A stretch of 64,000 bases of DNA, taken from Pseudomonadota bacterium (GTDB lineage: Bacteria; Myxococcota_A; UBA9160; SZUA-336). Shown here piece after piece: positions 13,035-49,972 of the stretch. The notes under the pieces were generated by a model that did no database searches, was not told the DNA's origin, and saw only the letters and a program-made list of their open reading frames with translations. Numbering within the stretch: the first letter of the stretch is position 1; the number at the start of each line of letters is the position of its first letter. Where the stretch lies: the NCBI GenBank assembly GCA_021295775.1, contig JAGWBS010000014.1, forward strand, positions 10,199 to 74,198, read 5' to 3'. Made by a program: the position numbers and the translations under genes.

Positions 13035-16000
13035 ATGTTCTTCAGCCGCAAGGCCGGTGACACCGGTTTGTGTTCGCAGCTGGTCGCGGCCGGGGTCGCC
13101 GCGGGATTCCTGATCTCGGCGGCATGGGCCGGAGCGGAGGAGACGGCGGGTTCGGAGGGAGCCTCTTTGGGTCCGCTCTACGCCCAGGCGGACGCCGACG
13201 CCGCGCCGGCCCCGGAGGCGGCGGCGGAAGACGATGATCGCGTCGGCATCGAGCAGATCACGGTCACCGCGCGCCGCCGCGAGGAGGTCGCGCAGGACAT
13301 CCCGCTGGCAATCACCACGCTGGGCGCCGACGAGATGGAGGCCACCCAGCTCGTCGACTACCAGGACCTGCAGTTCAACGTCCCCAACCTCGCCTACACC
13401 AAGACCAACTTCAGCGGCGGCGGGTCGCTTGCGATCCGCGGCATCGGCCGTTCGGTGATCGCGGCTTCGGGCGAGAACAGCACCGGCGTGCACGTCAACG
13501 GCGTCTCGCTGGTCGCGGCCCGCATCTTCGAAGCGGAGTTCTTCGACACCGAGCGGCTGGAGGTGCTGCGCGGCCCGCAGGGCACGCTGTACGGGCGCAA
13601 CTCCTCGGCGGGCGCGGTCAACGTCATCACCCGGCGCCCCACCGATGAGGCCGGCGGCTACCTGGAGGCCGAGTACGGCGACTTCGACCACACCAAATTC
13701 AAGGGCGCGCTGAACCTGCCGCTGAGCGAACGCCTGGCGGTGCGCCTGGCGGGCTTCTGGCTCGATCGCGAGGGCTACACCGACAACCTCGCCACCGGCA
13801 ACGACATCGACGACCGCTCGATCTGGGGGCTGCGCTTCTCGGCCGACTTCCAGGCCAGCGACCGCACCAGCGCCAAGCTGACCGTGAGCCTGTTCGACGA
13901 GGACGATCACCGCTCCCGCTCGCACAAGCAGGTCTGCAACACCGACACGGCGGACGGCGGCAACCCCGCGCTGTTCTTCCTGAACGTCGGCTGCCGCGGG
14001 ACCGAGGACCTGGGCGAGGGCTCGATCAACGGCCTGGCCACCCTGGGCGGTCTGTTGAACGCCGTGGTCTGGTGGGATCCGGCGGTCGGAGACTTCTGGC
14101 GGGCCGACACCCAGGCCGGCTGTCCGGGGGCCGCCGCGGGTCTGTCCTGCCTGGGCTACTTCCCCACCGTCTTCAACGGCCAGCAGCTGCGGACCAACAA
14201 CTTCTCGCAAGCCGTGAATCCGAGCAGTCTGCGCGACCTGAGTTCCCCCCTCGACCCGGACTACCAGACGGACGAACTCGTCGCCTCGTTCGAACTGGGG
14301 CACGAGTTCGAGCGCTTCACGCTGACGTCCATCACCGGCTGGGCCGACCATGAGGTCAGCAGCCTCCAGGACTACTTCTGGACCTACGACCCCACGCCCC
14401 TGGGCTGGAGCGCCGCCAACGGCGGTCGCGGGCCGGAGTTCGACTTTCCGGGCACCGGGCTCGGCGGCCACTACACCGGAGACCTGGCCTTCGACACCTC
14501 GGATCAGAAGAGCGATCTGTTCTCCCAGGAGATCCGCTTGGCCAGCGAGTTCGAGGGGCGGGTGAACTTCACCGCCGGGGCGATCTACACGCGGTCGCGC
14601 GGCGAGACCGCCTATGGGGTCTACGCCGGAGCACTGGAGTCGTTCTACAGAGCCAACAACAATCTGGCGAACGCGACGGACGCCCAACTCGCCCCGCTGA
14701 CGGGCGCGCTCAAGGGAGCCGGCGTGCTCCCCGACGCCGCTCCCGACGGGATCGCCGGCCTGGCCGCGCTCGGCGCCGCCTGCGCCCCGACACTGACCGC
14801 GATCGGACAGAGTCCGGCCTTATGCGCTGCGACGGGGCTGTTGCCCTTCGTCGGCCCCTACGACCCGAACCTGACCTACTTCCTGGCCGAGACGCCCGAT
14901 CTGGAGCTGGAATCCTACGCCGGGTTCGGCGAGGTCTACTTCGACCTGTCCGACGACACCCGGGTCACCGTCGGCGGCCGGCTGACCAACGATAAAAAGT
15001 CGGTCCGCGACCGCAGCGGGAACCTTTTCTCCTACGGCGACCCCGACAACGACGGCGAGTTCGGAGAGTACGAACGGCGCAGCGAGCGCTGGACCAAGTT
15101 CACCGGAAGGCTGGGGATCGATCACCAGCTCCGGCTGGCCATCGGCGACGCGCTGGTCTACGCCAACGTCTCGACCGGCTTCAAGAGCGGCGGCTTCAAC
15201 AACTCGGGCGAGTTCACTCCGCCGACCTTCGACGAGGAGGAGATCACCAGCTACGAGGTCGGCTGGAAGAGCCTGCTCTTCGACAACCGCCTGCAGCTCA
15301 ATCTGACCGGTTTCTTCTACGACTACGAGGGCTATCAGATCTCCAAGATCGTCAACCGCACCGCGCTCAACGAGAACGCCGATGTGGAGATCCGCGGCTT
15401 CGAGCTGGAGTCGGTCTTCCGGCCCACGCGGGCGCTGCAGTTCGACTTCAGCCTGAGCTGGCTGGACAGCGAGATCCAGGACTTCCGCTCGGTCGACCCG
15501 ATCAACATGACCGCGGGACGCCCCGGCTACACGATGTTCAAGGACGTGTTTCAGCCCGTCCCCAACGGCCAGAACGCGGTGATGCTGCAGAGCGACCTTC
15601 TGCCGTGCCTGACGGGCGCTTCGCTCGTGGCCTGCGCTTCGTACAATCCCATCGGCTTCGAGAGCGACCTGGATGGAAACGAACTGCCGCAGGCGCCCGA
15701 GCTGACGGTCAAGCTGGGCGGCCAGTACACCTTCGAGCTGGGCGAGCGCTACCAGGTCACGCTGCGGGCGGACTGGTACTGGCAGGACGAGACCTGGGGC
15801 CGGATCTACAACCTGGGCCGCGACGAGATCGACAGCTGGTCGCAGCTCGACGCCCAGATCGTCTTCCAGCCGGTGGACGCGCCCTGGTCGCTGCGCGTCT
15901 GGGGCAAGAACCTGGCCGACAACGACGACATCACCGGCATGTACCTGACCGATCCGACGTCGGCGCTGTTCACCAACCTGTTCATTCTCGAGCCGCGGGT

Positions 16001-16043
16001 CTTCGGAGCCTCGGTCCGCTACGAGTTCGGCTCGAACGACTGA
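13035..16043 (+). CDS. TonB-dependent outer-membrane receptor
   Basis: 1002 aa. Signal peptide. Plug domain 'IEQITVTARRREEVAQDIPLAITTL...' through 'ERLEVLRGPQGTLYGRNSSAGAVNVITRRP'. Long beta-barrel. Ends 'RVFGASVRYEFGSND', four residues beyond the usual terminal aromatic. Confidence 0.85.
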   Translation: MFFSRKAGDTGLCSQLVAAGVAAGFLISAAWAGAEETAGSEGASLGPLYAQADADAAPAPEAAAEDDDRVGIEQITVTARRREEVAQDIPLAITTLGADEMEATQLVDYQDLQFNVPNLAYTKTNFSGGGSLAIRGIGRSVIAASGENSTGVHVNGVSLVAARIFEAEFFDTERLEVLRGPQGTLYGRNSSAGAVNVITRRPTDEAGGYLEAEYGDFDHTKFKGALNLPLSERLAVRLAGFWLDREGYTDNLATGNDIDDRSIWGLRFSADFQASDRTSAKLTVSLFDEDDHRSRSHKQVCNTDTADGGNPALFFLNVGCRGTEDLGEGSINGLATLGGLLNAVVWWDPAVGDFWRADTQAGCPGAAAGLSCLGYFPTVFNGQQLRTNNFSQAVNPSSLRDLSSPLDPDYQTDELVASFELGHEFERFTLTSITGWADHEVSSLQDYFWTYDPTPLGWSAANGGRGPEFDFPGTGLGGHYTGDLAFDTSDQKSDLFSQEIRLASEFEGRVNFTAGAIYTRSRGETAYGVYAGALESFYRANNNLANATDAQLAPLTGALKGAGVLPDAAPDGIAGLAALGAACAPTLTAIGQSPALCAATGLLPFVGPYDPNLTYFLAETPDLELESYAGFGEVYFDLSDDTRVTVGGRLTNDKKSVRDRSGNLFSYGDPDNDGEFGEYERRSERWTKFTGRLGIDHQLRLAIGDALVYANVSTGFKSGGFNNSGEFTPPTFDEEEITSYEVGWKSLLFDNRLQLNLTGFFYDYEGYQISKIVNRTALNENADVEIRGFELESVFRPTRALQFDFSLSWLDSEIQDFRSVDPINMTAGRPGYTMFKDVFQPVPNGQNAVMLQSDLLPCLTGASLVACASYNPIGFESDLDGNELPQAPELTVKLGGQYTFELGERYQVTLRADWYWQDETWGRIYNLGRDEIDSWSQLDAQIVFQPVDAPWSLRVWGKNLADNDDITGMYLTDPTSALFTNLFILEPRVFGASVRYEFGSND

Positions 16044-16525
16044 GGCTCGTCCACCCCGCGGCTCTCCGGCTCCCGAGCCTCGGGCTCGGGGGGCGGCCGC
16101 ACCCGCAGTTCGAGTTCGACGGGCGCGCGCAGGGAGTTGGTGATCAGGCAGTTGCGCTCCGCCTTTTGCAGCAGGCGCTCGGCGCGCGCGACGCGCACGC
16201 CCGGGTCGAGTTCGAGATCGGCGCGGATGCGCAGCGCGGTCAGGCGCGCCCCGCCGGGCGCGGAGTCGATGGTCCCCTCCGCGCTGCAGTCGAGCCGGCG
16301 GAAGCCCAGTCGGGAGGCGGCGGCGCCGATCCGGAACGACAGCGAGAAGCAGTCGGCCGCGGCGGCGACCAGCAGCGCGCCCGGCGACCAGGCGTCTCCG
16401 GGTCCGCCGTGGGCCGGCGCGGCGTCGGTCTCCAGGTCCGGCAGGCCGTCGGCGCTGAGCCGGACGCGCCCGGTGGGGCGAGCCCGCGCCCGCACCGTGT
16501 AGCTCTGGGGGTAGGCGGCGCCCAA
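16019..16525 (-). CDS. OsmC/Ohr family peroxiredoxin-like protein
   Basis: 168 aa. 'GALLVAAAADCFSLSF' and 'KAERNCLITNSL' are the two conserved Cys-containing OsmC motifs. TTG start 16525, 4 nt after the selenoprotein stop. 3' end overlaps the convergent TonB receptor by 25 nt. Confidence 0.75.
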   Translation of the reverse strand: MGAAYPQSYTVRARARPTGRVRLSADGLPDLETDAAPAHGGPGDAWSPGALLVAAAADCFSLSFRIGAAASRLGFRRLDCSAEGTIDSAPGGARLTALRIRADLELDPGVRVARAERLLQKAERNCLITNSLRAPVELELRVRPPPEPEAREPESRGVDEPQSFEPNS

Positions 16526-16529
16526 GCCG

Positions 16530-16754
16530 TCAGCCGGAGCCGCCCAGGCGTTCCAGGATCTCGGCGTGCTCGGGGAAGCGCCCGGTCCGGTGCTTGGAGA
16601 AGATCAGGTCACCGTCCCGCTTCACCTCGAAAACTCCGTTGTCGCCCTTGATCAGACTCGCTTCTCCGCCGGTCACCCGCCTGATCTCGGCCGCCAAACT
16701 GGTGGCCTGGGGCAGGTAGTTTCAACGCACGCAGTATTCGATCGAGATCTCCAT
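16530..16754 (-). CDS. SelW/Rdx-family selenoprotein (74 aa) with in-frame UGA (Sec) at 16722-16724; absent from the ORF track
   Basis: Minus-strand ATG 16754. Read-through translation 'MEISIEYCVRUNYLPQATSLAAEIRRVTGGEASLIKGDNGVFEVKRDGDLIFSKHRTGRFPEHAEILERLGGSG'. CxxU redox motif, then GG...FEV...G.L..SK...GRFP as in Rdx/SelW proteins. Lies 108 nt downstream of selB, 4 nt upstream of OsmC. Confidence 0.6.
16689..16707 (-). promoter_or_regulatory. candidate bacterial SECIS hairpin 14 nt 3' of the UGA codon
   Basis: mRNA GGCC-A-CC-AGUUU-GG-CG-GGCC: GGCC/GGCC outer stem, CC/GG inner stem, apical loop containing G-U. Begins 14 nt after UGA, the expected SelB-binding position. Confidence 0.3.
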
Positions 16755-16862
16755 GCCCCAAGAGTCGCACCCGCGAGGGCGCATGGCAAAGGCGCCCGGC
16801 CACGGCGGCGCTGGGCTCGGGCCCGGACGGCGTTCGGCCGCCCTGAGCCACGCCTATGTCCC

Positions 16863-18788
16863 TCAGCGTTTCCGCAGGACGCGGGTGTTGCCGACCCGGC
16901 GGGTGACTTTGCGGGCGTCGAAGTATTCCATCAGGGGAACGGTGTGCTTGCGGGTCTGTCCGGTGAGCTGCTTGTAGCGGACCGGGTCGATCTCGCCGTG
17001 CTGTTTCAGGAAGGCGACCAGCCGTCCGCTCAGCTCCTCGAGCGCGGCGGCGTCGAAGTAGCGGCCCGGCGCGACCCGCTCGAGCCGGCCCTGGCGCACC
17101 CAGTGGTCGAGCACGGGCTGGAGCGCGCGCGCTTCGCAGCCCAGCTCGCGAGCCAGCGCTTCCTGAGTGTCCGGCGCGAGCCCGGCGCCGCAGATGCGCT
17201 CCAGGAGACGCTCGGCCAGTTCCTCGTCGGCCGCGTGCGCGACGTGCTCCGGCGCGCGGTAGCCGGTCTCGCCCGAGAGCAGGGCTCCGCCGCGGACCGC
17301 GGCCGCCAGCGCGGCGCGCAGCGCCTCGTCGCGCGCGTGGCGGCGGACGCGCGCGCGCACGCCCGCGAACCCCACCCAGGGATCGGTCGGGACCTCGGCG
17401 TGATGCGCCCGGACCGCCTCCACGGCCAAGCGTTCGAGCTGCGCGAAGGCCTCGCGGTGCAGCCAGCGCCCGCCGCCCACCGCGACCCCGTCGAGCGACT
17501 CCAGCGAACGCACCTCGCGCAGCAGCTCGGCCTCGGTCGCCCCGCGCAGTCCCGCGCGCTTCAGGCGCGCGGCCAGGGCCGCGGAGCGGTCGCCGGAGGC
17601 CGCGACCTGCAGGTCCCGCGAACGCTCTTTCCGCCTGCGCCGACCTCGCGCGGGCACCGCGTCCAGCACGACTCCACCGCCGATCGTCCAGCCGGCCTCC
17701 GGGATCCTGCGGTAGCCGCGCAGGATGAAGCGGTCGCCCTCCACCACGGGGACCGGCGAGTCGAAGCGGAATTGCGCGAAGGCGCGGTCTCCGGGCTCCA
17801 GGCGCTCGGCGTCCAGCAGGCGGATCCGGGCCGGGCGCTCCGAGGTGCCGACGTGCAGCGCGACCCGCGCGCCGTCGTCCAGCGGCGGGGCCGCGTCCAG
17901 CAGGCGCACTTCGGCCTCGACCCGGTCGCGGTAGTCGAGCCGGCCGGGCGTCGCCAGCACGCTGCCGCGCGGGACGGCTTCGACTTCGACGCCCTGCAGG
18001 TTGACCGCGCAGCGCGAACCCGGCTCGGCCCGCGCGACCGTCTCCCCGTGCACCTGCAGTCCTCGGATTCGGGCCTGGGCCGCGACCCGGCCGCCCTCCG
18101 GCAGGATCTCGATATTCTGCCCCTCGTTCAGTTCCGAGCCGCGCAGGGTTCCGGTGACCACCGTGCCGAAGCCGCGCATGCTGAAGGTCCGATCGACGGG
18201 CAGCCAGGCCGGGCCGTCGCGCAGCGTGCGGCCGGCGCTGCGCTCCGCCGCGCGCTCGAGCGCCGCGATCAGCTCGTCCATGCCCCGGCCGGTGTGCGCG
18301 GACACCGCCACCACCTCGGCCCGGTCCAGGCTCGAGACCGCCAGCTCTTCTTCGACCTCGAGCCGGGCCAGTTCCAGCAGATCGGCCTCGACCGCGTCCG
18401 CCTTGGTCAGCGCCACCACCCCGGCGTCGATGCCCAGCAGCGAGCAGATCGCCAGGTGCTCGCGGCTCTGCGGCATGATGCCCTCGTCGGCGGCGACCGC
18501 GAACAGCACCAGGTCGATCCCGGTGGCGCCGGAGACCATCGTGCGCACCAGCCGCTCGTGCCCCGGCACGTCGACCACGCCCAGGCCGCGGCCGGAGGGC
18601 AGTTCCAGCGGCGCGAAGCCCAGCTCGATGGTGATCCCGCGCGCCTTCTCTTCCGGGAGCCGGTCGCAGTCGACCCCGCTGAGCGCGCGGATCAGCGAGG
18701 TCTTGCCGTGATCGATGTGGCCGGCGGTTCCCAGGATCAGCCGGCGGCTTCGCTCCGCTTCGGTCCGACCCGCTCCGCCCGGCTTCAC
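16863..18788 (-). CDS. selB: selenocysteine-specific translation elongation factor
   Basis: 641 aa from GTG 18788 (SD GAGCGGGG). GTP-binding N-terminus '[43 protein letters not shown]...[10 protein letters not shown]'. C-terminal winged-helix region '[33 protein letters not shown]'. Upstream part of the listed ORF (to 19043) overlaps serS and is discarded. Confidence 0.85.
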
Positions 18789-18798
18789 GGGGCCCCGC

Positions 18799-20064
18799 TC
18801 AGCCGATCGAATCGAAGCCCGCGTAGGGCCGCAGCGCCGCCGGGATCGCGATCGAACCGTCCGCGCGCTGGTGGTTCTCCAGGATCGCGATGATGGCGCG
18901 CGAGACCGCCAGGGCCGTGCCGTTGAGCATGTGGCAGAAGCGCGCGTGGCCCGACTCGGGATCGCGGTAGCGCACGCCCAGGCGCCGCGCCTGGTAGTCG
19001 GTGCAGTTGGAGGCGCTGGTGATCTCGCCCCAGCTTCCGCCATCGCCGCGGCCCGGCATCCAGGCCTCCAGGTCCAGCTTGCGGTGCGCGGGCGCGCCCA
19101 GGTCGCCGCGGCACACCTCGACCACCCGGTAGGGCACCTCCAGCCGGGTGAAGAGATCCTCCTCGATCTCGACCAGTTCGTCGTGCAGCGCGGCCGACTC
19201 GCGCGGGCCGCAGACCACGAACATCTCCACTTTAGTGAACTGGTGGACTCGGTACAGCCCCTTGGAGGCGCGGCCCGCCGCCCCGGCCTCGGTGCGGAAG
19301 CAGTGCGACAGGCCGCAGTAGCGTCGCGGCAGGCTGTCGGCGTCGAGGATCTCGTCGCGGTGCAGTCCGCCGAGGGTGATCTCGGCGGTGCCGACCAGCA
19401 CCAGGTCCGTGCCGGCCACGGAGTAGATCTGCGACTCGTCCCCGCGCGGGTTGAAGCCCAGTCCCTCGGCCACTTCGCCGCGCGCCAGGTCCGGCGTCTG
19501 GAAGAGCGTGTAGCCGCGCCCGCGCAGGCTTTCGAGCGCGAAGCGCACCAGCGCCTGCTCCAGCAGCACCAACTCGTTCTTCAGGTAGTAGAACTTCTGG
19601 CCCGCGACCTTGGCGCCCGCTTCGAAGTCGAGCAGGTCGTGCAGCCCGCCGAGCTGCACGTGGTCGCGCGGCTCGAAGTCGAAGCGAGGCGGCTCGCCGA
19701 CGCGGCGCAGCTCCTCGTTGGCCTCCTCGTCCGCTCCGGGGGGAGAGGCGGGGTGGGTGGTGTTCGGGACCCTCCGGTGCAGCTCCGAGAGATCCCCGCG
19801 CAGCTTGCGCAGGGCCTCGTCCAGCTCCGCCTCGCGCGTCTTCAGCTCCCGGCCGAGCGCCCGCTCCCGCTCGTCCGGCTTGCGGCCCTTCATCTGGCTC
19901 GCGAGCCGGTTGCGGCGCTCGCGCACGTCCTGCTGCTCCGAGCCCAGAGAGCGGCTTTCGTGGTCGAGGGCGATCAGCCGGTCCAGATCGACGTCGACGT
20001 GGCGTTCGGCGCAGTTGCTCCGCACGGCGTCCAGGTTCTCGCGAATGAAGCGCAGGTCCAGCAA
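18799..20064 (-). CDS. serS: seryl-tRNA synthetase
   Basis: 421 aa from TTG 20064 (GGAG 9 nt upstream), giving the N-terminus 'MLDLRFIRENLDAVR'. Class II motifs 'YCGLSHCFRTEAG...GLYRVHQFTKVEMF' and 'DLEAWMPGRGDGGSWGEITSASNCTDYQARRL'. Upstream 203 codons of the listed ORF are shadow. Confidence 0.85.
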   Translation of the reverse strand: MLDLRFIRENLDAVRSNCAERHVDVDLDRLIALDHESRSLGSEQQDVRERRNRLASQMKGRKPDERERALGRELKTREAELDEALRKLRGDLSELHRRVPNTTHPASPPGADEEANEELRRVGEPPRFDFEPRDHVQLGGLHDLLDFEAGAKVAGQKFYYLKNELVLLEQALVRFALESLRGRGYTLFQTPDLARGEVAEGLGFNPRGDESQIYSVAGTDLVLVGTAEITLGGLHRDEILDADSLPRRYCGLSHCFRTEAGAAGRASKGLYRVHQFTKVEMFVVCGPRESAALHDELVEIEEDLFTRLEVPYRVVEVCRGDLGAPAHRKLDLEAWMPGRGDGGSWGEITSASNCTDYQARRLGVRYRDPESGHARFCHMLNGTALAVSRAIIAILENHQRADGSIAIPAALRPYAGFDSIG

Positions 20065-30527: not shown

Positions 30528-32927
30528 TCAAGCTTCCGCGACGACGCCCCGCTCCAGCAGCGCCTCCACAGCCCCGGGCGCGTAGCCGATCTCCCCCAGG
30601 ATCTCGCGGGTGTGCTCGCCGGCCCGGTATCCGCCCCCGGGGCGAGCCGGGCGCTCGCAGCTCACCCCGGCTCCGTAGCGGCGGTACGGACCGAAGGCCG
30701 ATTCCTCCACGTCGACCACGTACCCCAGCTCACGGGCCCACTCCTGCTCGAAGAGCCATTGTGGATAGGCGCCCCGATCGGCGCGCACGCAAGCGACGCC
30801 GCGCGAAGTCAGCTCGCGCTCCAGCGCGTCGGCTTCGCGGGCGGCCAGGGTCTCCGCGAGCTGCTTGGCCAACTCGCCGGCGTTGCGGCCGCGCGCCTGC
30901 GGCTCCCGAAAGCGCGGGTCCCGCGCCAGATCCTGCCTGGCGAGAGCGCCGCAGAGACGTTCGAAGGCGCGCTGGCTCGGGGCGGCCAGGAACACCCAGC
31001 CGTCGCGCGCCGGGTAGAGCCGGTACAGCGGACCCAGCCCCAGCAGCTCGGCGTCGGGCTGCTCCTGGGGAGGCCGGCCGGCGTAGTCGATGAAGTCGGC
31101 GGACATCATGTAGGCGTTGGAGAGCATCATCCGCGTCTCCATCGCCAGGCCCTCGCCGCGGCGCTCGGCGACGTACAGTCCCAGCGTCAGCGCAGCGGCC
31201 GCCGCGACGGCGGAATTGAAGTCCGGGTTGGCCTCGTTGCAGCGCTCGAGGTAGTGCGCGGTCCGCGCGGCCTCGTCCGGGGTCAGCTCGGCGTCCGGCG
31301 GCGGAGGCATCGCCCGCCCCGCCTGGGCGTGCGCGCCGCCGCAGACGGCGCCGCCAGTGACGTGGAACGCCGCCGCCCAGGCCCGCGGCCCGCTCGATCC
31401 GTACGAGCCGTTGTACAGGTAGACGAGCCGGGGATTGATCTCGCGCAGCGTCGGGTAGTCGATGCCGAGGCGCTCGGGCGCGCCCGGGCGGTAGCCGTGC
31501 ACCAGCGCGTCCGCCCGCGCGACCAGCCGGTGGACGATCTCGCGCCCCTCGTCCCGCTTGAGGTCGACCGCGACGCTCTGCTTGCCCTGGATCATCTTGA
31601 GAGCGGTCAGGCGCCCGCTGTGGCGCATCGGATCGCCCTCCAGCGGCTCGATCTTGATCACCCGCGCGCCCAGATCGGCGAGCTGGGTGCTGCTGAAGGG
31701 CGTCGCGATCCACATGCCAAACTCCAGCACGGTGACGCCGCCCAGGATCCCCTGCGGCGCGGGCTCGCCGCCGCTGCCCGGAGTCGGGCGGCGCTCGCCG
31801 GACCAGCCGCGGCCGGCCAGAGATCCCGGCGCCGGCGCGGGCGAGGTCTGGAAAGCGGGCGAGCCCTTCAGGTCGATCAGCGGACCGAGCTGGCGCGTCG
31901 GACCCACTTCGGGATCGGTCAGCTCGCGCGAATCGCCCATGTGCAAGAACTGGGGGTGGTCCAGCGCCTCGCCGGGCGCCCAGAAGGGCTCGACCGCGAT
32001 GTTCCGCTCGCCCTCGAAGACCGCCTGCCACTCGGCCCAGGTCTTCTGCGCCATTCGCTCCAGGATCCGCGCCCGCAGCTCCCGGAGCTTGTCGGGATCG
32101 GTGCCGCCCGCGCCCATCGACTCGCGGTAGCTCAGGCCGGGGTCGAGATCGATCAGGCGGAAGAAGGTCTCGAACAGCGCGGGGCCGTTCTGGGCGAACT
32201 GCAGCCACACCCCGTCCGCCGTGCGGGCGATGCTGTAGGGCACGAAGGGCGAGTCGCCGTGCCGCAGCTCTCCGGTCATGCCGGGCAGCCAGTGCGTCAT
32301 GTCGTAGACGCTCAGCGCCTGGGCCAGGCTGGTCTCCAGTCGCTGTCCGCGGCCCGTGCGCTCGCGCTCGCGCAGCGCGGCGAAGACCCCCTGCAGCGCC
32401 AGCATGGCCGCGCCGTGCGCAACCACCGGCGCGGCCGCGAAGGCCGGACGCTCGCCGCCGAAGAGCACCGAGAACTCGTACATGCGGCCGCCCTTGGCGG
32501 CCATCACGCCGTCGTAGACGGGTACGTCGCGATACGGGCCGCGCGAGCCGAAGCCGCTCAGCGCGCAATACACCAGCCCCGGGTTGGACTCCGCCAGGCT
32601 CTCGTACTCCAGGCCGAAGCGCTCCACGCTGGCGGGCTTGAGTCCCAGCAGCGCGACGTCCGCCTCCGCGGCGAGTTCCCGCACGCGCCGCCGGCCCGCG
32701 GGGTCGCCCAGGTCGGCCAGCTCGCTCTGCTTGCCGCGCGACCACATCCGGAAGGCGGGCCGGGCGCGCAACGGGTCGCCCCCGGGCGGCTCGATCCGGA
32801 TCACCTCGGCGGCGTTGTCGGCCAGCACCATCCCGGCGACGGCCAGCGAGACGCTGGATCCCAGCTCGAGCACGCGCAGGCCCGCCGCGACGCCTTGCCC
32901 GCCTTCCGCTGCCGGGTTCGCTACCAT
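30528..32927 (-). CDS. tandem-fused family III CoA-transferase (two complete CaiB/BaiF domains in one 799-aa chain)
   Basis: ATG at 32927. Domain 1 'LRVLELGSSVSLAVAGMVLADNAAEVIRIEPPGGDPLR...'. Domain 2 'VTVLEFGMWIATPFSSTQLADLGARVIKIEPLEGDPMR...'. Upstream 156 codons of the listed ORF are shadow. Confidence 0.8.
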   Translation of the reverse strand: MVANPAAEGGQGVAAGLRVLELGSSVSLAVAGMVLADNAAEVIRIEPPGGDPLRARPAFRMWSRGKQSELADLGDPAGRRRVRELAAEADVALLGLKPASVERFGLEYESLAESNPGLVYCALSGFGSRGPYRDVPVYDGVMAAKGGRMYEFSVLFGGERPAFAAAPVVAHGAAMLALQGVFAALRERERTGRGQRLETSLAQALSVYDMTHWLPGMTGELRHGDSPFVPYSIARTADGVWLQFAQNGPALFETFFRLIDLDPGLSYRESMGAGGTDPDKLRELRARILERMAQKTWAEWQAVFEGERNIAVEPFWAPGEALDHPQFLHMGDSRELTDPEVGPTRQLGPLIDLKGSPAFQTSPAPAPGSLAGRGWSGERRPTPGSGGEPAPQGILGGVTVLEFGMWIATPFSSTQLADLGARVIKIEPLEGDPMRHSGRLTALKMIQGKQSVAVDLKRDEGREIVHRLVARADALVHGYRPGAPERLGIDYPTLREINPRLVYLYNGSYGSSGPRAWAAAFHVTGGAVCGGAHAQAGRAMPPPPDAELTPDEAARTAHYLERCNEANPDFNSAVAAAAALTLGLYVAERRGEGLAMETRMMLSNAYMMSADFIDYAGRPPQEQPDAELLGLGPLYRLYPARDGWVFLAAPSQRAFERLCGALARQDLARDPRFREPQARGRNAGELAKQLAETLAAREADALERELTSRGVACVRADRGAYPQWLFEQEWARELGYVVDVEESAFGPYRRYGAGVSCERPARPGGGYRAGEHTREILGEIGYAPGAVEALLERGVVAEA

Positions 32928-32974
32928 CGGCCGAGCATACCACCGGCCCGCGGCGGACCCTCCGGCCGGCGGCG

Positions 32975-33802
32975 CTATCCCTCCCGGACGGGACGGCCGC
33001 CGAGGACGACGTGGAACTGGCGCTCCGGGGCGTTCGCCGGCGTGCGCCGGATTCCGCCCGAGCCGTCGGGCATCAGCCAGTCGGCCCCGTCCGGCGCGAA
33101 CTGCACGATGTAGGCCTTGCGGACGTCCCCGCCCACGTTCGGACCGGTGCGATGCGGGGTCAGACTGGAGAAGACCGCCACGCTTCCCGGCCGCAGCGGC
33201 ACCGGGACGCCCGGGAAGTCGTCGGGCAGGCAGCGGAAGCCCAGCTCGGAGGGTTCGTGCGCGAGCGTGCCCTGGCGGTGCAGCCCCGGCGCGACCTGGG
33301 GACAGCCGTTGCGCTCGTCGGCCTCGGTCAGCGCGATCCAGCAGGTCAGGTACTGCTGCGGCTCGATGAAGGTGTATCCGTTGTCCTGGTGCCACGGGAA
33401 CCCGCGGCGGTCGCCGGGCTTCTTGTAGACCGCCTGGTCCCAGTACAGCCGGACGTCGGGACCCAGCACGTCGGACGCGATCTCGCGCAGCGGAGCCGAG
33501 CGGACGAAGTCCCGGAGCCGCTCGGAGCGCGCGACCAGGTGGGCCGAGAAGGTGAGTTCGCCCGCGCGGCCGATGAACGCCCGGCCGCCCTCCTGCTCAG
33601 CCAGGAACGCCTCCGTCTCGCGCTCGAAGGGATCGATCTCGGCGATCAGGCGCTCCACCTCGTCGGGGGAGAACGCGTCCTCGAACGCGAACCAGCCCTG
33701 CGCGTTGTAGAGCTCGGCCTGCGCCGGGGAGAGCCGGCGGAAGGGGGCCCGGATCGGCCGCCAGTCGAAGCCGCGATTGAGTTTGTGGCGGGGGTGGTTC
33801 AC
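32975..33802 (-). CDS. phytanoyl-CoA dioxygenase (PhyH) family Fe(II)/2-oxoglutarate oxygenase
   Basis: 275 aa from GTG 33802 (GGGAG upstream; GTGA overlap with the GH3 stop). 'FPWHQDNGY...CWIALTEADERNGCPQVAPGLH...PGSVAVFSSLTPHRTGPN' carries the HxD...H facial triad. Confidence 0.75.
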   Translation of the reverse strand: MNHPRHKLNRGFDWRPIRAPFRRLSPAQAELYNAQGWFAFEDAFSPDEVERLIAEIDPFERETEAFLAEQEGGRAFIGRAGELTFSAHLVARSERLRDFVRSAPLREIASDVLGPDVRLYWDQAVYKKPGDRRGFPWHQDNGYTFIEPQQYLTCWIALTEADERNGCPQVAPGLHRQGTLAHEPSELGFRCLPDDFPGVPVPLRPGSVAVFSSLTPHRTGPNVGGDVRKAYIVQFAPDGADWLMPDGSGGIRRTPANAPERQFHVVLGGRPVREG

Positions 33803-39817: not shown

Positions 39818-42172
39818 TCAGTCGGGCAGGCCGTGGCCGATCACCCGGGTCACGCCGCGCTCGGCCAGGGCGGCGATGCGGGCGTCGTCGTAGCCCAGCT
39901 CGCGCAGCACGGCCGTCGTGCGGGCGCCCAGTTCGCCGGCCGGACGGACCGGGGTGGGGCCGTCCCCGAACTCGATCGCCGGGCCGGCGCGCCAGGAGCG
40001 CGGCGTGCCGGGCTGGGCGGCCTCCACCGCGACGCGGTTTTCGCGGCAGTGCGGGTGGCCGAGCATGAAGTCCTCGTGTTCGATGCCGTCGGCGCGCACG
40101 GCGGGAACTCCGGCCTGCCGCAGGCGCGACTCCCACTCGTCCGCGGGACGCCGGGCGAAACGGGCGGCCAGTTCACGGGCCAGTTCGGCGTCGTTCCGCC
40201 CGCGCGCGGGCGGGTCGGCGAAGCGGGGATCCTGGGCCAGCCCCGGATCGACGCCCGCGCACAGCGCCCGCCACTCGCGCGGGCGGTGGCACTCCAGATA
40301 GATCCAGCCGTCGGCGGTCGGGTAGAGGCGGTGCAGCGCCCCGAAGCCGTGCTGTCCGCGGTCGGGCATGCGGTCCTGCTTGCCCGGGTACTGCAGGCTC
40401 CACTCCGACACCGCGTAGGCCATCGAGGTCAGCATGGTGGTCTCGACGTACTGGCCTTTTCCCGTGCGTTCGCGGGCGTGCAGGCCGACCAGCGCGCAGG
40501 CGGCGGTCGCCAGAGCGGCGGCCGGGTCCGCGAAGGTCCGGTTCCGCGGCGGGTTGTCCCGGCCCGACTCGATGATCCCGCAGCCGCAGATGGCGTTCGG
40601 CGAGGAATGGAAGCCGGCCTTGTGCGACCAGGGACCGGCGCTGCCAAAGCACGATCCGTACACGTAGACCAGCCGCGGGTTGAGCGCGTTCAGCGTCGCG
40701 TAGTCGATCCGCAGACGCTCCGGTGTACCGGGGCGGAAGTTGTGGATGAACAGGTCCGCGCTCCGGACCAGTTCGTGGACGATCTCGCGCCCCTCAGGAG
40801 TCTTGAGGTCGACCGCCACCGACTCCTTGCCGACCATCGCCTTGGACCAGGTCCGGGTCCAGTTGCGGCGCCCCGGGTCGCCCGCGCTCGGCTCGATCTT
40901 GATCACGCGGGCGCCGGCCTCGGCCAGCAACGTGGCGGCGAAGGGCGTGGCGTAGAAGTAGCCGCACTCGACGATCGTGACGCCTTGCAGCGGGCCGCCG
41001 ACGGGGTCCGCGTCTGCCGGGGCGGATCCCTCGTCGCTGCCCGCCACCCTCTCCTTCGCCGCGGCCTCGAGCAGCTCGGCGGTGTGTTCGCCGAGGCGCG
41101 GCGCGGGCGCGCCGATCTCCGCGGGCGTCGCGGAGAAGCGGGCCAGCGGACCGACCTGCAGGGTGCGGCCGACCTCCGGGTCGATCACCTCCCGGGCGCG
41201 GCCGTTGAGCGCGGTCTGCGGGTGTTCGAGGAACTCGGCCGCGGTCAGGAACGGATCGCCCCCGATGTCGTTGGCGGAGAAGATCTCCATCCACTCGTCC
41301 GCGCTGCGCTCGCGCATCTTTTCGCGGATCCGCTCGATGACCTCCCGCATGCGCTCCTCGCTGGGGAACAGGTCCGGCATGTGCCGGAGATCGGGGGCGT
41401 CGAGCAGCTCTTCGAGTCCCAGCGCCTTGAGCCAGTTCCGGTAGAGGTGCGGCTGGCGGCTGCACATCTGGATGAAGCGCCCGTCGCGCGTCGGGGCGGT
41501 CATGAACGCGACCTCCATCACCCCGAAGACCTGGCCGGGCTTGACTTGGTGGGTGCGGTTGCCCGGACCGAGCGTCATGTCGTAGACGGACAGGGCGGCC
41601 AGCAGGCTGGTGTGCAGGCGCTGGCCGGGCCCGCTGCGCCCGCGCCGCCAGAGCGCCGCGAGCAGGCCCTGGGCGGCGAGCATGCCGGCGCCGTAGCTGG
41701 CGATCGGGACCGGCGTGAAGATCGGTCCCTTGCGGAACCCCGGCTGGGCGTGCATCCGCCCGGCGCGGGCGGACACGATGCCTTCGTAGCCGGGCAGGTC
41801 GCGCAGCTCCCCGCGCTCGCCGAAGCCGCTGATCGAGGCGTAGACCAGCCGCGGGCAGCGGGGGCGCAGCGTCCGGTAGTCGATCCCCAGCCGCGCGGCC
41901 GCGCCCGGGCGCAGGCACTCGATCATTCCGTCCGCGCCGGCCGCCAGCCGGACGAAGTTTTCGCGCCCGCCGGATTCGCGCAGATCGAGCACGACGCTCT
42001 GCTTGCCGCGGTGCCACACCCGAAAGCCCGGACGCCCGCGGTCGGGGTCGCCGCCGGGCGGCTCGACCTTGACCAGCTCGGCGCCGTTCTCGGCCAGCAC
42101 CATGCCCGCCATGGCGCCGGCCGCGCCCGAGCCGACCTCCAGGATCCGCAGTCCGTTGAGTGCCGCAGGCAT
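39818..42172 (-). CDS. tandem-fused family III CoA-transferase (two CaiB/BaiF domains, 784 aa)
   Basis: ATG 42172. Domain 1 'LRILEVGSGAAGAMAGMVLAENGAELVKVEPPGGDP'. Domain 2 'VTIVECGYFYATPFAATLLAEAGARVIKIEPSAGDP'. Upstream 315 codons of the listed ORF are shadow. Confidence 0.8.
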   Translation of the reverse strand: MPAALNGLRILEVGSGAAGAMAGMVLAENGAELVKVEPPGGDPDRGRPGFRVWHRGKQSVVLDLRESGGRENFVRLAAGADGMIECLRPGAAARLGIDYRTLRPRCPRLVYASISGFGERGELRDLPGYEGIVSARAGRMHAQPGFRKGPIFTPVPIASYGAGMLAAQGLLAALWRRGRSGPGQRLHTSLLAALSVYDMTLGPGNRTHQVKPGQVFGVMEVAFMTAPTRDGRFIQMCSRQPHLYRNWLKALGLEELLDAPDLRHMPDLFPSEERMREVIERIREKMRERSADEWMEIFSANDIGGDPFLTAAEFLEHPQTALNGRAREVIDPEVGRTLQVGPLARFSATPAEIGAPAPRLGEHTAELLEAAAKERVAGSDEGSAPADADPVGGPLQGVTIVECGYFYATPFAATLLAEAGARVIKIEPSAGDPGRRNWTRTWSKAMVGKESVAVDLKTPEGREIVHELVRSADLFIHNFRPGTPERLRIDYATLNALNPRLVYVYGSCFGSAGPWSHKAGFHSSPNAICGCGIIESGRDNPPRNRTFADPAAALATAACALVGLHARERTGKGQYVETTMLTSMAYAVSEWSLQYPGKQDRMPDRGQHGFGALHRLYPTADGWIYLECHRPREWRALCAGVDPGLAQDPRFADPPARGRNDAELARELAARFARRPADEWESRLRQAGVPAVRADGIEHEDFMLGHPHCRENRVAVEAAQPGTPRSWRAGPAIEFGDGPTPVRPAGELGARTTAVLRELGYDDARIAALAERGVTRVIGHGLPD

Positions 42173-42211
42173 GCGCTGGCATAGTCTCCCGGATCTTCGA
42201 GGGGTGGCGCA

Positions 42212-43108
42212 ATGAGCGAGCGAGAGCGGCCCGTGCGCAGCCTGCTTTTCGTGCCGGGCAATCGCGAGTCCTGGATGCGCAAGGCCCTCGGCCTGGACGC
42301 CGACGCGCTGGTCTTCGATCTGGAGAGCGCCACGCCGAGCGGCCGGGCGGACGAGGCGCGATCGCTGGTGCGCGGCGTGCTCGACACGCCGCGGCCCGAG
42401 CGGCCGCTGCTCTTCGTCCGCGTGCGCGACGCCCGCTCCGCGGAACTGGAGGGCGACCTCGAAGCGGTCGTCTGCGAGGGTCTGAGCGGCGTCCTGCTGC
42501 CGCAGGTCATCGGCCCCGAGGATGTCCGCCGCCTCGACCAGGCCCTCGGCCGCCGCGAGCGCGAAGCCGGGCTGGAGCCGGGGCGGACCCTGGTGATGCC
42601 GCTGGTCGAGACGGCCCAGGCGGCGCGGCAGGCGTACGAGATCGCGCTCGCCAGCCCGCGGATCGCCTACATGGGCGGGGGAGTGTCGCGCAACGGGGAC
42701 ATCGCCCGCTCGCTCGGCTACCGCTGGACCCCCGAAGGCCTGGAGACCCTCTTCCTGCGCTCCAAAGTCCTGCTGGACGTGCGCGCGGCGGGCGTCTTCA
42801 ACCCGATCAGCGGGCTCTGGGGCGCGGTCGAAGACCTGGAAGGGCTGCGCGCGTTCGCCGAGCAGTCGCGCGATCTCGGCTACCAGGGACTGATGGCGAT
42901 CCATCCCTCGCACCTCGACGTCATCCACCAGGTGTTCACGCCCAGCGGCGAGGAGATCGACGAGTGGCGACGAGTGATCGCGGAACTCGAGGCGGCCGAA
43001 GGCGAGGGCCGGGGCGCCATCCGGCTCGACGGACGCCTGATCGACCACGCCCACGCCGAGACGGCGCGGCGCCAGCTGGAATGGGCGCGAAAGCTCGGGT
43101 TGATATGA
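42212..43108 (+). CDS. HpcH/HpaI aldolase / citrate-lyase beta subunit (CitE)-like acyl-CoA lyase
   Basis: 298 aa. 'RSLLFVPGNRESWMRKALGLDADALVFDLE' is the CitE-family N-terminus. Confidence 0.8.
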   Translation: MSERERPVRSLLFVPGNRESWMRKALGLDADALVFDLESATPSGRADEARSLVRGVLDTPRPERPLLFVRVRDARSAELEGDLEAVVCEGLSGVLLPQVIGPEDVRRLDQALGRREREAGLEPGRTLVMPLVETAQAARQAYEIALASPRIAYMGGGVSRNGDIARSLGYRWTPEGLETLFLRSKVLLDVRAAGVFNPISGLWGAVEDLEGLRAFAEQSRDLGYQGLMAIHPSHLDVIHQVFTPSGEEIDEWRRVIAELEAAEGEGRGAIRLDGRLIDHAHAETARRQLEWARKLGLI

Positions 43109-43115
43109 TCGGCGC

Positions 43116-44282
43116 ATGCTGATCTCGGCCGACTCTCACGTCGTCGAGCCCTACGATCTCTGGCAGCGGGAACTCCCCGCGGGGCTGCGCGAGCGCGCCC
43201 CGAGGGCCGAGCGCGACCCGCACAACCGCCACTGGTACTTCGTCGATCCGGACGGCGTGCGGGGCGTGGACCTGACCCTGTCGGCCTCTGCGGGCATCCC
43301 GGCGGCCGAAGTCCAGTCGCGGCTCGACGCGGATCCGGACGCCGAGGTCGGCCGCGCCGGCGGGCGCGACCCGGTCGCGCGCCTGCGCGACCTGCAGCGC
43401 GACGGGACCCTCGCGGACGTGGTCTACCCGACGGCGACCCTGAGTCTGATGACGTCCGAGGACCGGCCGCTGCAGGAGGCCTGCTTCGCGATCTACAACG
43501 ACTGGATCTCCGACTACTGCGCCGCGGATCGCGAGCGCCTGGCGGGGCTCGCCGTGCTGTCCACCTGGGACATCGACCAGGCCGTGCGCGAGCTGCGCCG
43601 CGCGCACGCGCTGGGATTGCGCGGCGCGGTGATCTGGACCTCGCCGCCCGAGTCGGACAGCTTCTTCAGCCGGCGCTACGAGCCGCTCTGGGAGGCGGCC
43701 GCGGGGCTGCGCATGCCGATCTCGCTGCACACCCTGGCGGGCAACCGCGCCAGCCGCGAGATCGAGCGCTACGGCGTGGACGTCGAGTCGACCTTCTTCT
43801 TCGTGTTCACCACCCGGCTGGAGCTGCAGCGCTCGCTGTGCGAGCTGGTGGTCTCGGGCGTGTTCGAGCGCCATCCCGAGTTGCGGGTGGTGGCGGCGGA
43901 GGGCGGGATCGAGTACGCGGCCACGCTCGAGCGCCGGCTCGACGGTGGCTTCGCGCGCTCCTGGGGGCGGCTCGACCACGAGCTCGAGTTGAAGCCCTCG
44001 GAGTACTTCCGGCGCAACGTGTACCTGACCTACATCTCCGACCCGGTGGGCCTGAACAACGTCCGCTTCACCGGGGCCGAACACTTCATGTGGTCGGGAG
44101 ACTATCCGCACGACGCCTCGACCTGGCCGCGCTCGCCCGAGGTCATGCGCCGGGAGTGCGACGAGGCGGGGCTGGACGAGGCCGCGGTGCGCAAGCTCGG
44201 CGTGGCCAACGTCGCCGGCCTCTACGGCTTCGACCTGGAGCGCTGCGCCGAGCCGAGTCCGCGGATCGCCTCCACCGACTGA
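43116..44282 (+). CDS. amidohydrolase-2 family (TIM-barrel metal-dependent hydrolase/decarboxylase, ACMSD-like)
   Basis: 388 aa. N-terminal 'MLISADSHVVEP' (metal-binding HxH-like), 'SGDYPHD' near the C-terminus. Confidence 0.8.
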   Translation: MLISADSHVVEPYDLWQRELPAGLRERAPRAERDPHNRHWYFVDPDGVRGVDLTLSASAGIPAAEVQSRLDADPDAEVGRAGGRDPVARLRDLQRDGTLADVVYPTATLSLMTSEDRPLQEACFAIYNDWISDYCAADRERLAGLAVLSTWDIDQAVRELRRAHALGLRGAVIWTSPPESDSFFSRRYEPLWEAAAGLRMPISLHTLAGNRASREIERYGVDVESTFFFVFTTRLELQRSLCELVVSGVFERHPELRVVAAEGGIEYAATLERRLDGGFARSWGRLDHELELKPSEYFRRNVYLTYISDPVGLNNVRFTGAEHFMWSGDYPHDASTWPRSPEVMRRECDEAGLDEAAVRKLGVANVAGLYGFDLERCAEPSPRIASTD

Positions 44283-49033: not shown

Positions 49034-49972
49034 ATGACGGACGCCCCCCGCCACACCCGGCTGCTGATCGTCGGCAGCGGTCCCGCCGGCTACACGGCCG
49101 CGATCTACGCGGCCCGCGCCCAGCTCTCGCCGGTGGTGGTCGCCGGCATGGCCTTCGGTGGCCAGCTCATGCTCACGACCGACGTGGAGAACTACCCCGG
49201 GTTCCCAGAGGGCGTGACGGGACCCGAGATGATGGAGATGTTCCAGAAGCAGGCCGAGCGCTTCGGGGCCGAAATCCTGATGGAGGACGCCACGGAGGTC
49301 GACCTGAGCCGGCGGCCGTTCCAGGTCCGGACCGACGGCGGAGGCTTCACGGCGGACGCGCTGATCGTCGCCACCGGCGCATCGGCGCGCTGGCTCGGTC
49401 TACCGTCCGAGCAGGAGTTCATGAACCGCGGGGTGTCGGCCTGCGCCACCTGCGACGGCGCGCTGTACCGCGACAAGCCGATGGCGGTCGTGGGCGGCGG
49501 CGACACCGCGATGGAAGAGGCGCTCTTCCTCACCCGCTTCGCGACCGTCGTCTACGTGATCCACCGGCGAGACGAGCTGCGGGCCAGCCGGATCATGGCC
49601 GAACGCGCGCGCCGCCATCCCAAGATCGAGTTCGTCTGGAACAGCGTGGTGGAGGAGATCGTCGGCGACGCCAGCGGCGTCACCGGGGTCCGGATCCGCG
49701 ACGTGCGCGGCGAGCGGACGCGGACGCTCGACGTCCAGGCGTGCTTCGTGGCGATCGGGCACCAGCCCAACACGGAGCTCATCGCGGACGTGCTGGAGAC
49801 GCATCCCAACGGCTACCTGGCGGTGCAGACCGGCTCGACGCGCACCAACGTGGAAGGGGTGTTCGCCTGCGGCGACGTAATGGACGCCACCTACCGCCAG
49901 GCCGTCACCGCCGCCGGGACGGGCTGCATGGCGGCGCTCGACGCCGAGCGCTGGCTGGCGGCCGGCGAATAG
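49034..49972 (+). CDS. trxB: thioredoxin-disulfide reductase
   Basis: 312 aa. 'LIVGSGPAGYTAAIYAARA', redox-active 'CATCDG', 'VVGGGDTAMEEALFL'. Confidence 0.9.
   Translation: MTDAPRHTRLLIVGSGPAGYTAAIYAARAQLSPVVVAGMAFGGQLMLTTDVENYPGFPEGVTGPEMMEMFQKQAERFGAEILMEDATEVDLSRRPFQVRTDGGGFTADALIVATGASARWLGLPSEQEFMNRGVSACATCDGALYRDKPMAVVGGGDTAMEEALFLTRFATVVYVIHRRDELRASRIMAERARRHPKIEFVWNSVVEEIVGDASGVTGVRIRDVRGERTRTLDVQACFVAIGHQPNTELIADVLETHPNGYLAVQTGSTRTNVEGVFACGDVMDATYRQAVTAAGTGCMAALDAERWLAAGE

Follow-up and report, generated by a model that had tools for sequence, protein, structure and literature searches.

The window, by which we mean the whole stretch of 64,000 nucleotides that was analysed, carries on its minus strand, at positions 16530..16754, a gene that is very probably that of an ordinary bacterial SelW-like (Rdx family) selenoprotein, with an in-frame UGA that specifies selenocysteine (Sec). 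The preliminary description of this DNA had read the locus in the same way, and the reading is borne out by profile HMM scores above their cut-offs, by homologues that align Cys with the Sec position, by a covarying hairpin and by an adjacent selB gene. The frame of this gene, here called selW, runs from ATG 16754 to TGA 16530-16532 and comprises 74 codons, among them a single in-frame TGA at 16722-16724; its translation reads MEISIEYCVR, then the internal TGA, then NYLPQATSLAAEIRRVTGGEASLIKGDNGVFEVKRDGDLIFSKHRTGRFPEHAEILERLGGSG and the stop, with 63 further codons following the internal TGA up to the terminal one. In the predicted product of 73-74 residues Sec is encoded by codon 11, and the sequence TGC GTG CGT TGA (16722..16733, minus strand) gives an N-terminal CxxU redox motif, Cys8-Val-Arg-Sec11 (CVRU, residues 8-11).

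Both the coordinates (ATG 16754 and TGA 16722-16724) and the sequence of this frame had been given exactly in the preliminary description, together with the correct remark that the track of open reading frames misses the gene: at this place the list contains just a 55-aa remnant in the selW frame, starting with TTG (16530-16697), and an 80-aa ORF in another frame (16609-16851). The latter had been considered a shadow ORF, and we reject it as a gene likewise, for in the closest relatives indels interrupt its upstream part, which is scrambled there. An upstream in-frame ATG at 16784 was also considered as the start of selW and discarded, since the frame that it opens is broken by a 1-nt indel in two related metagenome contigs (L005/L006); because this indel lies just upstream of ATG 16754, the latter is taken as the start. 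In the selW frame the G+C content of the three codon positions is 0.60/0.45/0.84, resembling that of the other, GC3-rich genes of the window, the overall G+C of which is 71%. This gene-like composition, the conservation at the protein level of the codons preceding the TGA, and the presence of either TGA or a Cys codon at the TGA column in every homologous locus argue that the frame has not arisen by chance.

Membership in the Rdx family was evaluated by using as HMM query the SelW translation with U replaced by C. The search against Pfam PF10262 (Rdx) that the preliminary description had proposed returned 69.2 bits for the read-through translation, above the curated cut-off of 22.6 and covering residues 2-70 of 74, while the NCBIfam equivalog model NF041051 ('SelT/SelW/SelH family (seleno)protein') and the model TIGR02174 (CXXU_selWTH) gave 90.8 bits (cut-off 88) and 55.3 bits (cut-off 34.2), respectively. 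Seven solved structures of the Rdx family also match the protein, including that of human MIEN1 (2ljk); the best match is Agrobacterium Atu0228 (2fa8_A, E=6.9e-10), the segment YCTQCNWL of which is aligned to YCVRCNYL in the U-to-C query. From these similarities we infer that SelW has a thioredoxin-like fold. The gene had been described as unannotated, which holds true for its full length; a fragment of it is nonetheless represented in GenBank by MCE2390688.1, a 'Rdx family protein' that is 98% identical but has only 55 aa, being truncated at the 5' end. SelW gene calls that are 5'-truncated or wholly missed constitute a documented annotation artefact (PMC4607533), and bacterial selenoprotein genes usually suffer truncation of this kind. 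The main value of our analysis is one of annotation: the active site is missing from the public 55-aa record, which should be corrected to a CxxU selenoprotein of 73 residues. The protein adds one member to a family known since 2005.

The genes surrounding selW lie on the same strand in a compact arrangement. Upstream, at 16863..18788 (minus strand, probable start GTG 18788, 641 aa), is selB, the gene for the selenocysteine-specific elongation factor, which scores 305 bits with NCBIfam TIGR00475 (cut-off 242) and contains the Pfam domains GTP_EFTU, Beta-barrel_SelB and SelB-wing_3, the last corresponding to the SECIS-binding winged helix (58.8 bits); its end at 16863 is separated from the ATG of selW by a spacer of 108 nt. 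Further upstream lies serS, coding for seryl-tRNA synthetase (18799..20064, minus strand; TIGR00414, 450 bits), with a probable start at TTG 20064; its start codon and its length of 421 aa agree with the gene calls of L005/L006, and 10 nt separate its end from the start of selB. The serS product serylates tRNA-Sec, and the textbook partner of selB is selA. The pairing of serS with selB on the same strand, 10 nt apart (16863-20064, minus strand), is found also in L005/L006 and in another pair of metagenome contigs, L057/L058.

Downstream of selW, beginning with a TTG at 16525 that lies 4 nt past the selW stop, is a gene for an OsmC-family protein of 168 aa with two cysteines, Cys59 and Cys126 (osmC, 16019..16525, minus strand; PF02566, 63.5 bits). 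The two cysteines are invariant among 8 homologues, and the protein falls below the cut-off for every curated NCBIfam subfamily of OsmC/Ohr proteins. We considered whether OsmC itself could be a selenoprotein and discarded the idea, for both of its catalytic positions are occupied by Cys and it reaches only 31 bits with the OsmC-selenoprotein model, the cut-off of which is 95. Its C-terminus bears a Pro/Glu-rich extension of approximately 23 aa (16019-16043), which homologues outside the lineage do not have and which overlaps the 3' end of a convergent gene for a TonB-dependent receptor (13035-16043, plus strand). The layout previously reported, with serS before selB, selB 108 nt upstream of selW and the OsmC gene 4 nt downstream, is exact in all its parts.

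Other components of selenium metabolism were searched for in the same DNA. ARAGORN found no tRNA of any kind in the 64-kb window and, in 24 related loci, only a tRNA-Met (in L043), while Pfam screening of about 40 ORFs of the window detected no SelA or SelD domain. A thioredoxin-reductase-like ORF of 312 aa belonging to the Pyr_redox_2 family is present at 49034-49972 (plus strand), 32 kb from selW; it is possible that its product acts as the upstream reductant of SelW, though it is unlinked to the cluster. Elsewhere in the window, two very long ORFs on the minus strand (30528-33596 and 39818-43135) contain two CoA-transferase family III domains each, and in both the long region further upstream may not be coding, but may represent the kind of shadow extension that high-GC sequence typically shows.

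How far does the arrangement of these genes extend among related organisms? The order serS-selB-selW-osmC is found again in L005/L006 and in the more diverged contigs L057/L058, in which SelW and OsmC are 58% and 64% identical, respectively, to the proteins of the window, the TGA is kept and the stop of selW overlaps the start of osmC. Gene order is kept only within this lineage, which encompasses L001-L007 and L057/L058. Among 89 more distant SelW loci, by contrast, selB is present in none of the fetched flanks and an OsmC gene occurs near SelW just once (L032), at a distance of 2 kb. We found no neighbour that SelW-like genes have in common across phyla, the search returning only clade-specific synteny in one group of Planctomycetota and antisense shadow ORFs; nor is there an Rdx gene beside the more distant OsmC homologues of Woeseiaceae (51%) and Sorangium (58%). 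Since the cluster is absent from all 89 of the distant SelW loci, it must be regarded as a lineage-specific arrangement and not as a general property of the family. In the literature we found neither a SelW-OsmC nor a serS-selB-selW gene cluster described.

In functional terms, a genuine selenoprotein could have come to lie beside selB and osmC without any functional meaning, as a stand-alone redox protein that landed there in one lineage. The lack of selB and the scarcity of OsmC around the distant SelW genes, the lack of a neighbour common across phyla and the distant OsmC homologues that have no adjoining Rdx gene all speak for such a reading; against it, the order of four genes has outlasted divergence to 58% in SelW and 64% in OsmC, with selW and osmC either 4 nt apart or overlapping by their stop and start. 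Having weighed these points, we consider the matter evenly balanced. That gene order has been retained despite divergence points to selection for co-expression in this lineage, and in the cluster a selenoprotein gene and the gene of its decoding factor can be seen to travel together. The more specific notion, by which in this uncultured marine lineage SelW would serve the two-Cys OsmC as a dedicated redox partner, being its reductant or resolving selenol within a jointly expressed serS-selB-selW-osmC module, is in our judgement rather unlikely. The 'selenium-dependent peroxide/redox-defence operon' that the preliminary description had deduced from gene order is retained as an arrangement of genes within the lineage and is not found in the 89 distant loci; a coupling of OsmC to SelW would be a possibility suggested by gene order only. 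The conserved order offers a readily testable hypothesis on what SelW-like proteins do, by which they would pass electrons to a peroxidase of OsmC type. Bacterial SelW-like proteins have no known biochemical function (PMC1088965), and a partnership with OsmC, if true, would provide their first defined partner and substrate.

The spacer between selB and selW includes a conserved block of 37 nt (16756..16792, minus strand), composed of TTGCCA, 17 nt with TG, and GACTCT, and ending 6 nt before the ATG. This block is invariant in the window, in L005/L006 and in L007, whereas the spacer is otherwise divergent or scrambled. No Shine-Dalgarno sequence precedes the ATG of selW in the window, and a scan for promoter and terminator consensus sequences between 15900 and 17000 flagged nothing, the 37-nt block included. 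The block may be an internal promoter giving rise to a leaderless selW-osmC mRNA. In L057/L058, selW has a GGAGGA Shine-Dalgarno sequence and follows selB after a shorter spacer of approximately 50 nt.

Turning to the decoding of the internal TGA, we compared the codon across loci. The 89 more distant homologous loci comprise 49 from genomes (one genome per species) and 40 from metagenomes and belong to many phyla, the genome loci spanning Myxococcota, Planctomycetota, Desulfobacterota, Marinimicrobia, Holophagae, Actinomycetota, Nitrospiraceae and others. At codon 11, 83 of the 89 loci have TGA and the other six TGT or TGC; the corresponding numbers are 47 and two for the 49 genome loci, and 36 and four (all TGC) for the 40 metagenome loci. 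No frameshift occurs at this column in any of the 89, Cys8 is invariant in all 49 genome loci checked, and the 10 codons on the 5' side of the TGA (MEISIEYCVR and similar sequences) are conserved at the protein level across phyla. The preliminary description had suggested looking for homologues with Cys aligned to the U position, and these have been found not only in the six loci just mentioned, but also in the CxxC of the Rdx structures and in full-length database proteins that have C at this column. In the close relatives L001-L007, metagenome contigs ranging from near-identical to 78% identical, the TGA is kept in seven of seven, and hardly any position varies between the ATG and the hairpin, the TGA included, even in those contigs in which the 3' half of the gene is divergent, as would be expected under combined constraint on protein and RNA.

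These data bear directly upon the proposition that translation really ends at the TGA, in which case the actual gene would be the 55-aa ORF that starts with TTG (16530-16697), or the locus a pseudogene of a former Cys-type Rdx gene. Database records lend it some support: the closest relatives are represented exclusively by 55-aa entries, one of which is named 'Rdx family protein', and a HMMER search with the C-terminal 55 aa of SelW as query gave 303 matches, most of them truncated calls of approximately 55 aa. Yet a product of that size would be devoid of strand 1 and of the CxxC/U active site, and the Pfam alignment begins as early as residue 2; moreover, across phyla the peptide encoded by the 30 nt ahead of the TGA is conserved, its Cys being invariant in the 49 genome loci checked, the TGA recurs at the exact column in independent loci, with Cys as its only replacement and without frameshifts, and short or missing SelW calls are the known artefact already discussed (PMC4607533). 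Accordingly, we hold a true stop to be very improbable.

Even less credible, to the point of being negligible, is a reading of TGA as Trp or Gly under an alternative code, giving a CxxW or CxxG protein that is not a selenoprotein, because the several database homologues written with W at this column, which favour it, are most readily accounted for by gene calling under code 4 or 25, a dedicated selB lies next door, the Cys homologues mark the column as that of a redox residue, and serS, selB and selW alike end at TGA, implying that TGA is an ordinary stop here without genome-wide reassignment. A G+C content as high as that of the window is unlike that of the known lineages that use code 4 or 25. 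At the U column, the full-length SelW homologues of the database show either C or W, W being a TGA read as Trp; W is found in the full-length SelW-like proteins P0015, P0043, P0076, P0096, P0132 and P0149, a pattern that indicates that genomes decoding Sec were subjected to gene calling with a TGA=Trp code.

The preferred reading, by which codon 11 specifies Sec, is further sustained by a putative bacterial SECIS hairpin, GGCCACC-AGU-UUGGCGGCC, located at 16689..16707 (minus strand), 14 nt after the UGA, and defined by minimum free energy folding and covariation. When 50 Sec-type sequences were aligned without gaps, 83.6% of the cells of its eight pairs were paired, versus at most 49% in any slid register, and its covariation score of 0.183 compares with 0.090 in shuffles, none of 500 shuffles reaching the observed value. 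Pairs 21-33 and 23-31 are never unpaired and vary among CG, GC, UA and UG; most sequences have an A-C mismatch in the hairpin. In the apical loop the first base, G26 (16699), is invariant and is followed by U27, which is at least 90% conserved. A small apical loop with G is a stated hallmark of bacterial SECIS elements (PMC1088965), and the hairpin of the window has such a loop on the 3' side of the UGA. Folding of the single sequence gave a modest z of -1.73 relative to shuffles, and no SECIS family of Rfam was matched, either at the gathering threshold over the whole window or locally at E<=10, so that the support for the hairpin comes from comparison across sequences and not from thermodynamics; local Rfam matches to mir-3102 and Bacillaceae-1 were dismissed as chance.

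The hairpin is absent in both Cys-type loci examined (L046 and L049). At the protein level, Sec-type SelW-like proteins of many phyla (L008-L056, L061-L100) share the segment PQATSLAAE with very little variation, and in the Cys-type forms of Nitrospiraceae it is replaced, for example by RPIAAGLA. Since the Cys forms lack both the hairpin and this segment, we conclude that PQATSLAAE is the hairpin read as protein, its conservation being imposed by the SECIS hairpin.

From the above results a mechanism can be proposed, following standard bacterial recoding. Translation would start at ATG 16754 and reach the UGA at codon 11, where SelB, carrying GTP and Sec-tRNA(Sec), would bind the hairpin at 16689-16707 via its C-terminal winged-helix domain and deliver selenocysteine instead of allowing termination. 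The predicted product is a minimal protein of thioredoxin fold, with Cys8-x-x-Sec11 expected at the usual active-site position of this fold, which presumably cycles between a selenenylsulfide and the reduced selenol/thiol as a small thiol-selenol oxidoreductase. Within the same-strand cluster, selW probably shares its mRNA with osmC, the product of which would function as a two-Cys hydroperoxide reductase and might receive electrons from SelW or be linked to it functionally in some other way.

When compared with known systems, the protein of the window is most similar to the bacterial SelW-like selenoproteins, with which it shares a length of about 70-75 aa, the N-terminal CxxU, a SECIS within the gene just after the UGA, the rarity of Cys-form homologues and the abundance in marine and metagenomic samples; it is the same as these proteins, and only the lineage-specific position between selB and OsmC sets it apart. 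SelW-like proteins are the most abundant selenoproteins in marine metagenomes, with 427 Sec versus 56 Cys forms in GOS (PMC2398784); 48 SelW-like genes have been reported from the Sargasso Sea (PMC1088965), and the proteins are listed in many complete genomes (PMC1794560). The solved Rdx proteins of Cys type (PDB 2fa8 or Atu0228, 2ojl, 2oka, 2obk, 2p0g, 3dex) and human MIEN1/C17orf37 (2ljk), which has been described with a thioredoxin-like fold and a redox-active motif (PMC3527542), are homologous over residues 3-70, their CxxC being aligned to the CxxU of SelW; they differ in having Cys in place of Sec and in being approximately 30 residues longer (103-117 aa), so that SelW represents the minimal domain. 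Mammalian selenoprotein W (SELENOW) has the Rdx family and the CxxU motif in common with SelW (PMC1088965), but its SECIS is of the eukaryotic type, lying in the 3' UTR and having another structure, whereas the bacterial element is found inside the coding region after the UGA (PMC1088965; PMC1802603). The OsmC-like selenoproteins (NF041052, UxxT motif), finally, belong to the same OsmC fold family as the osmC product of the window; the latter, in contrast, is a Cys form (Cys59/Cys126), and selenium is here accommodated in a separate, SelW-like protein.
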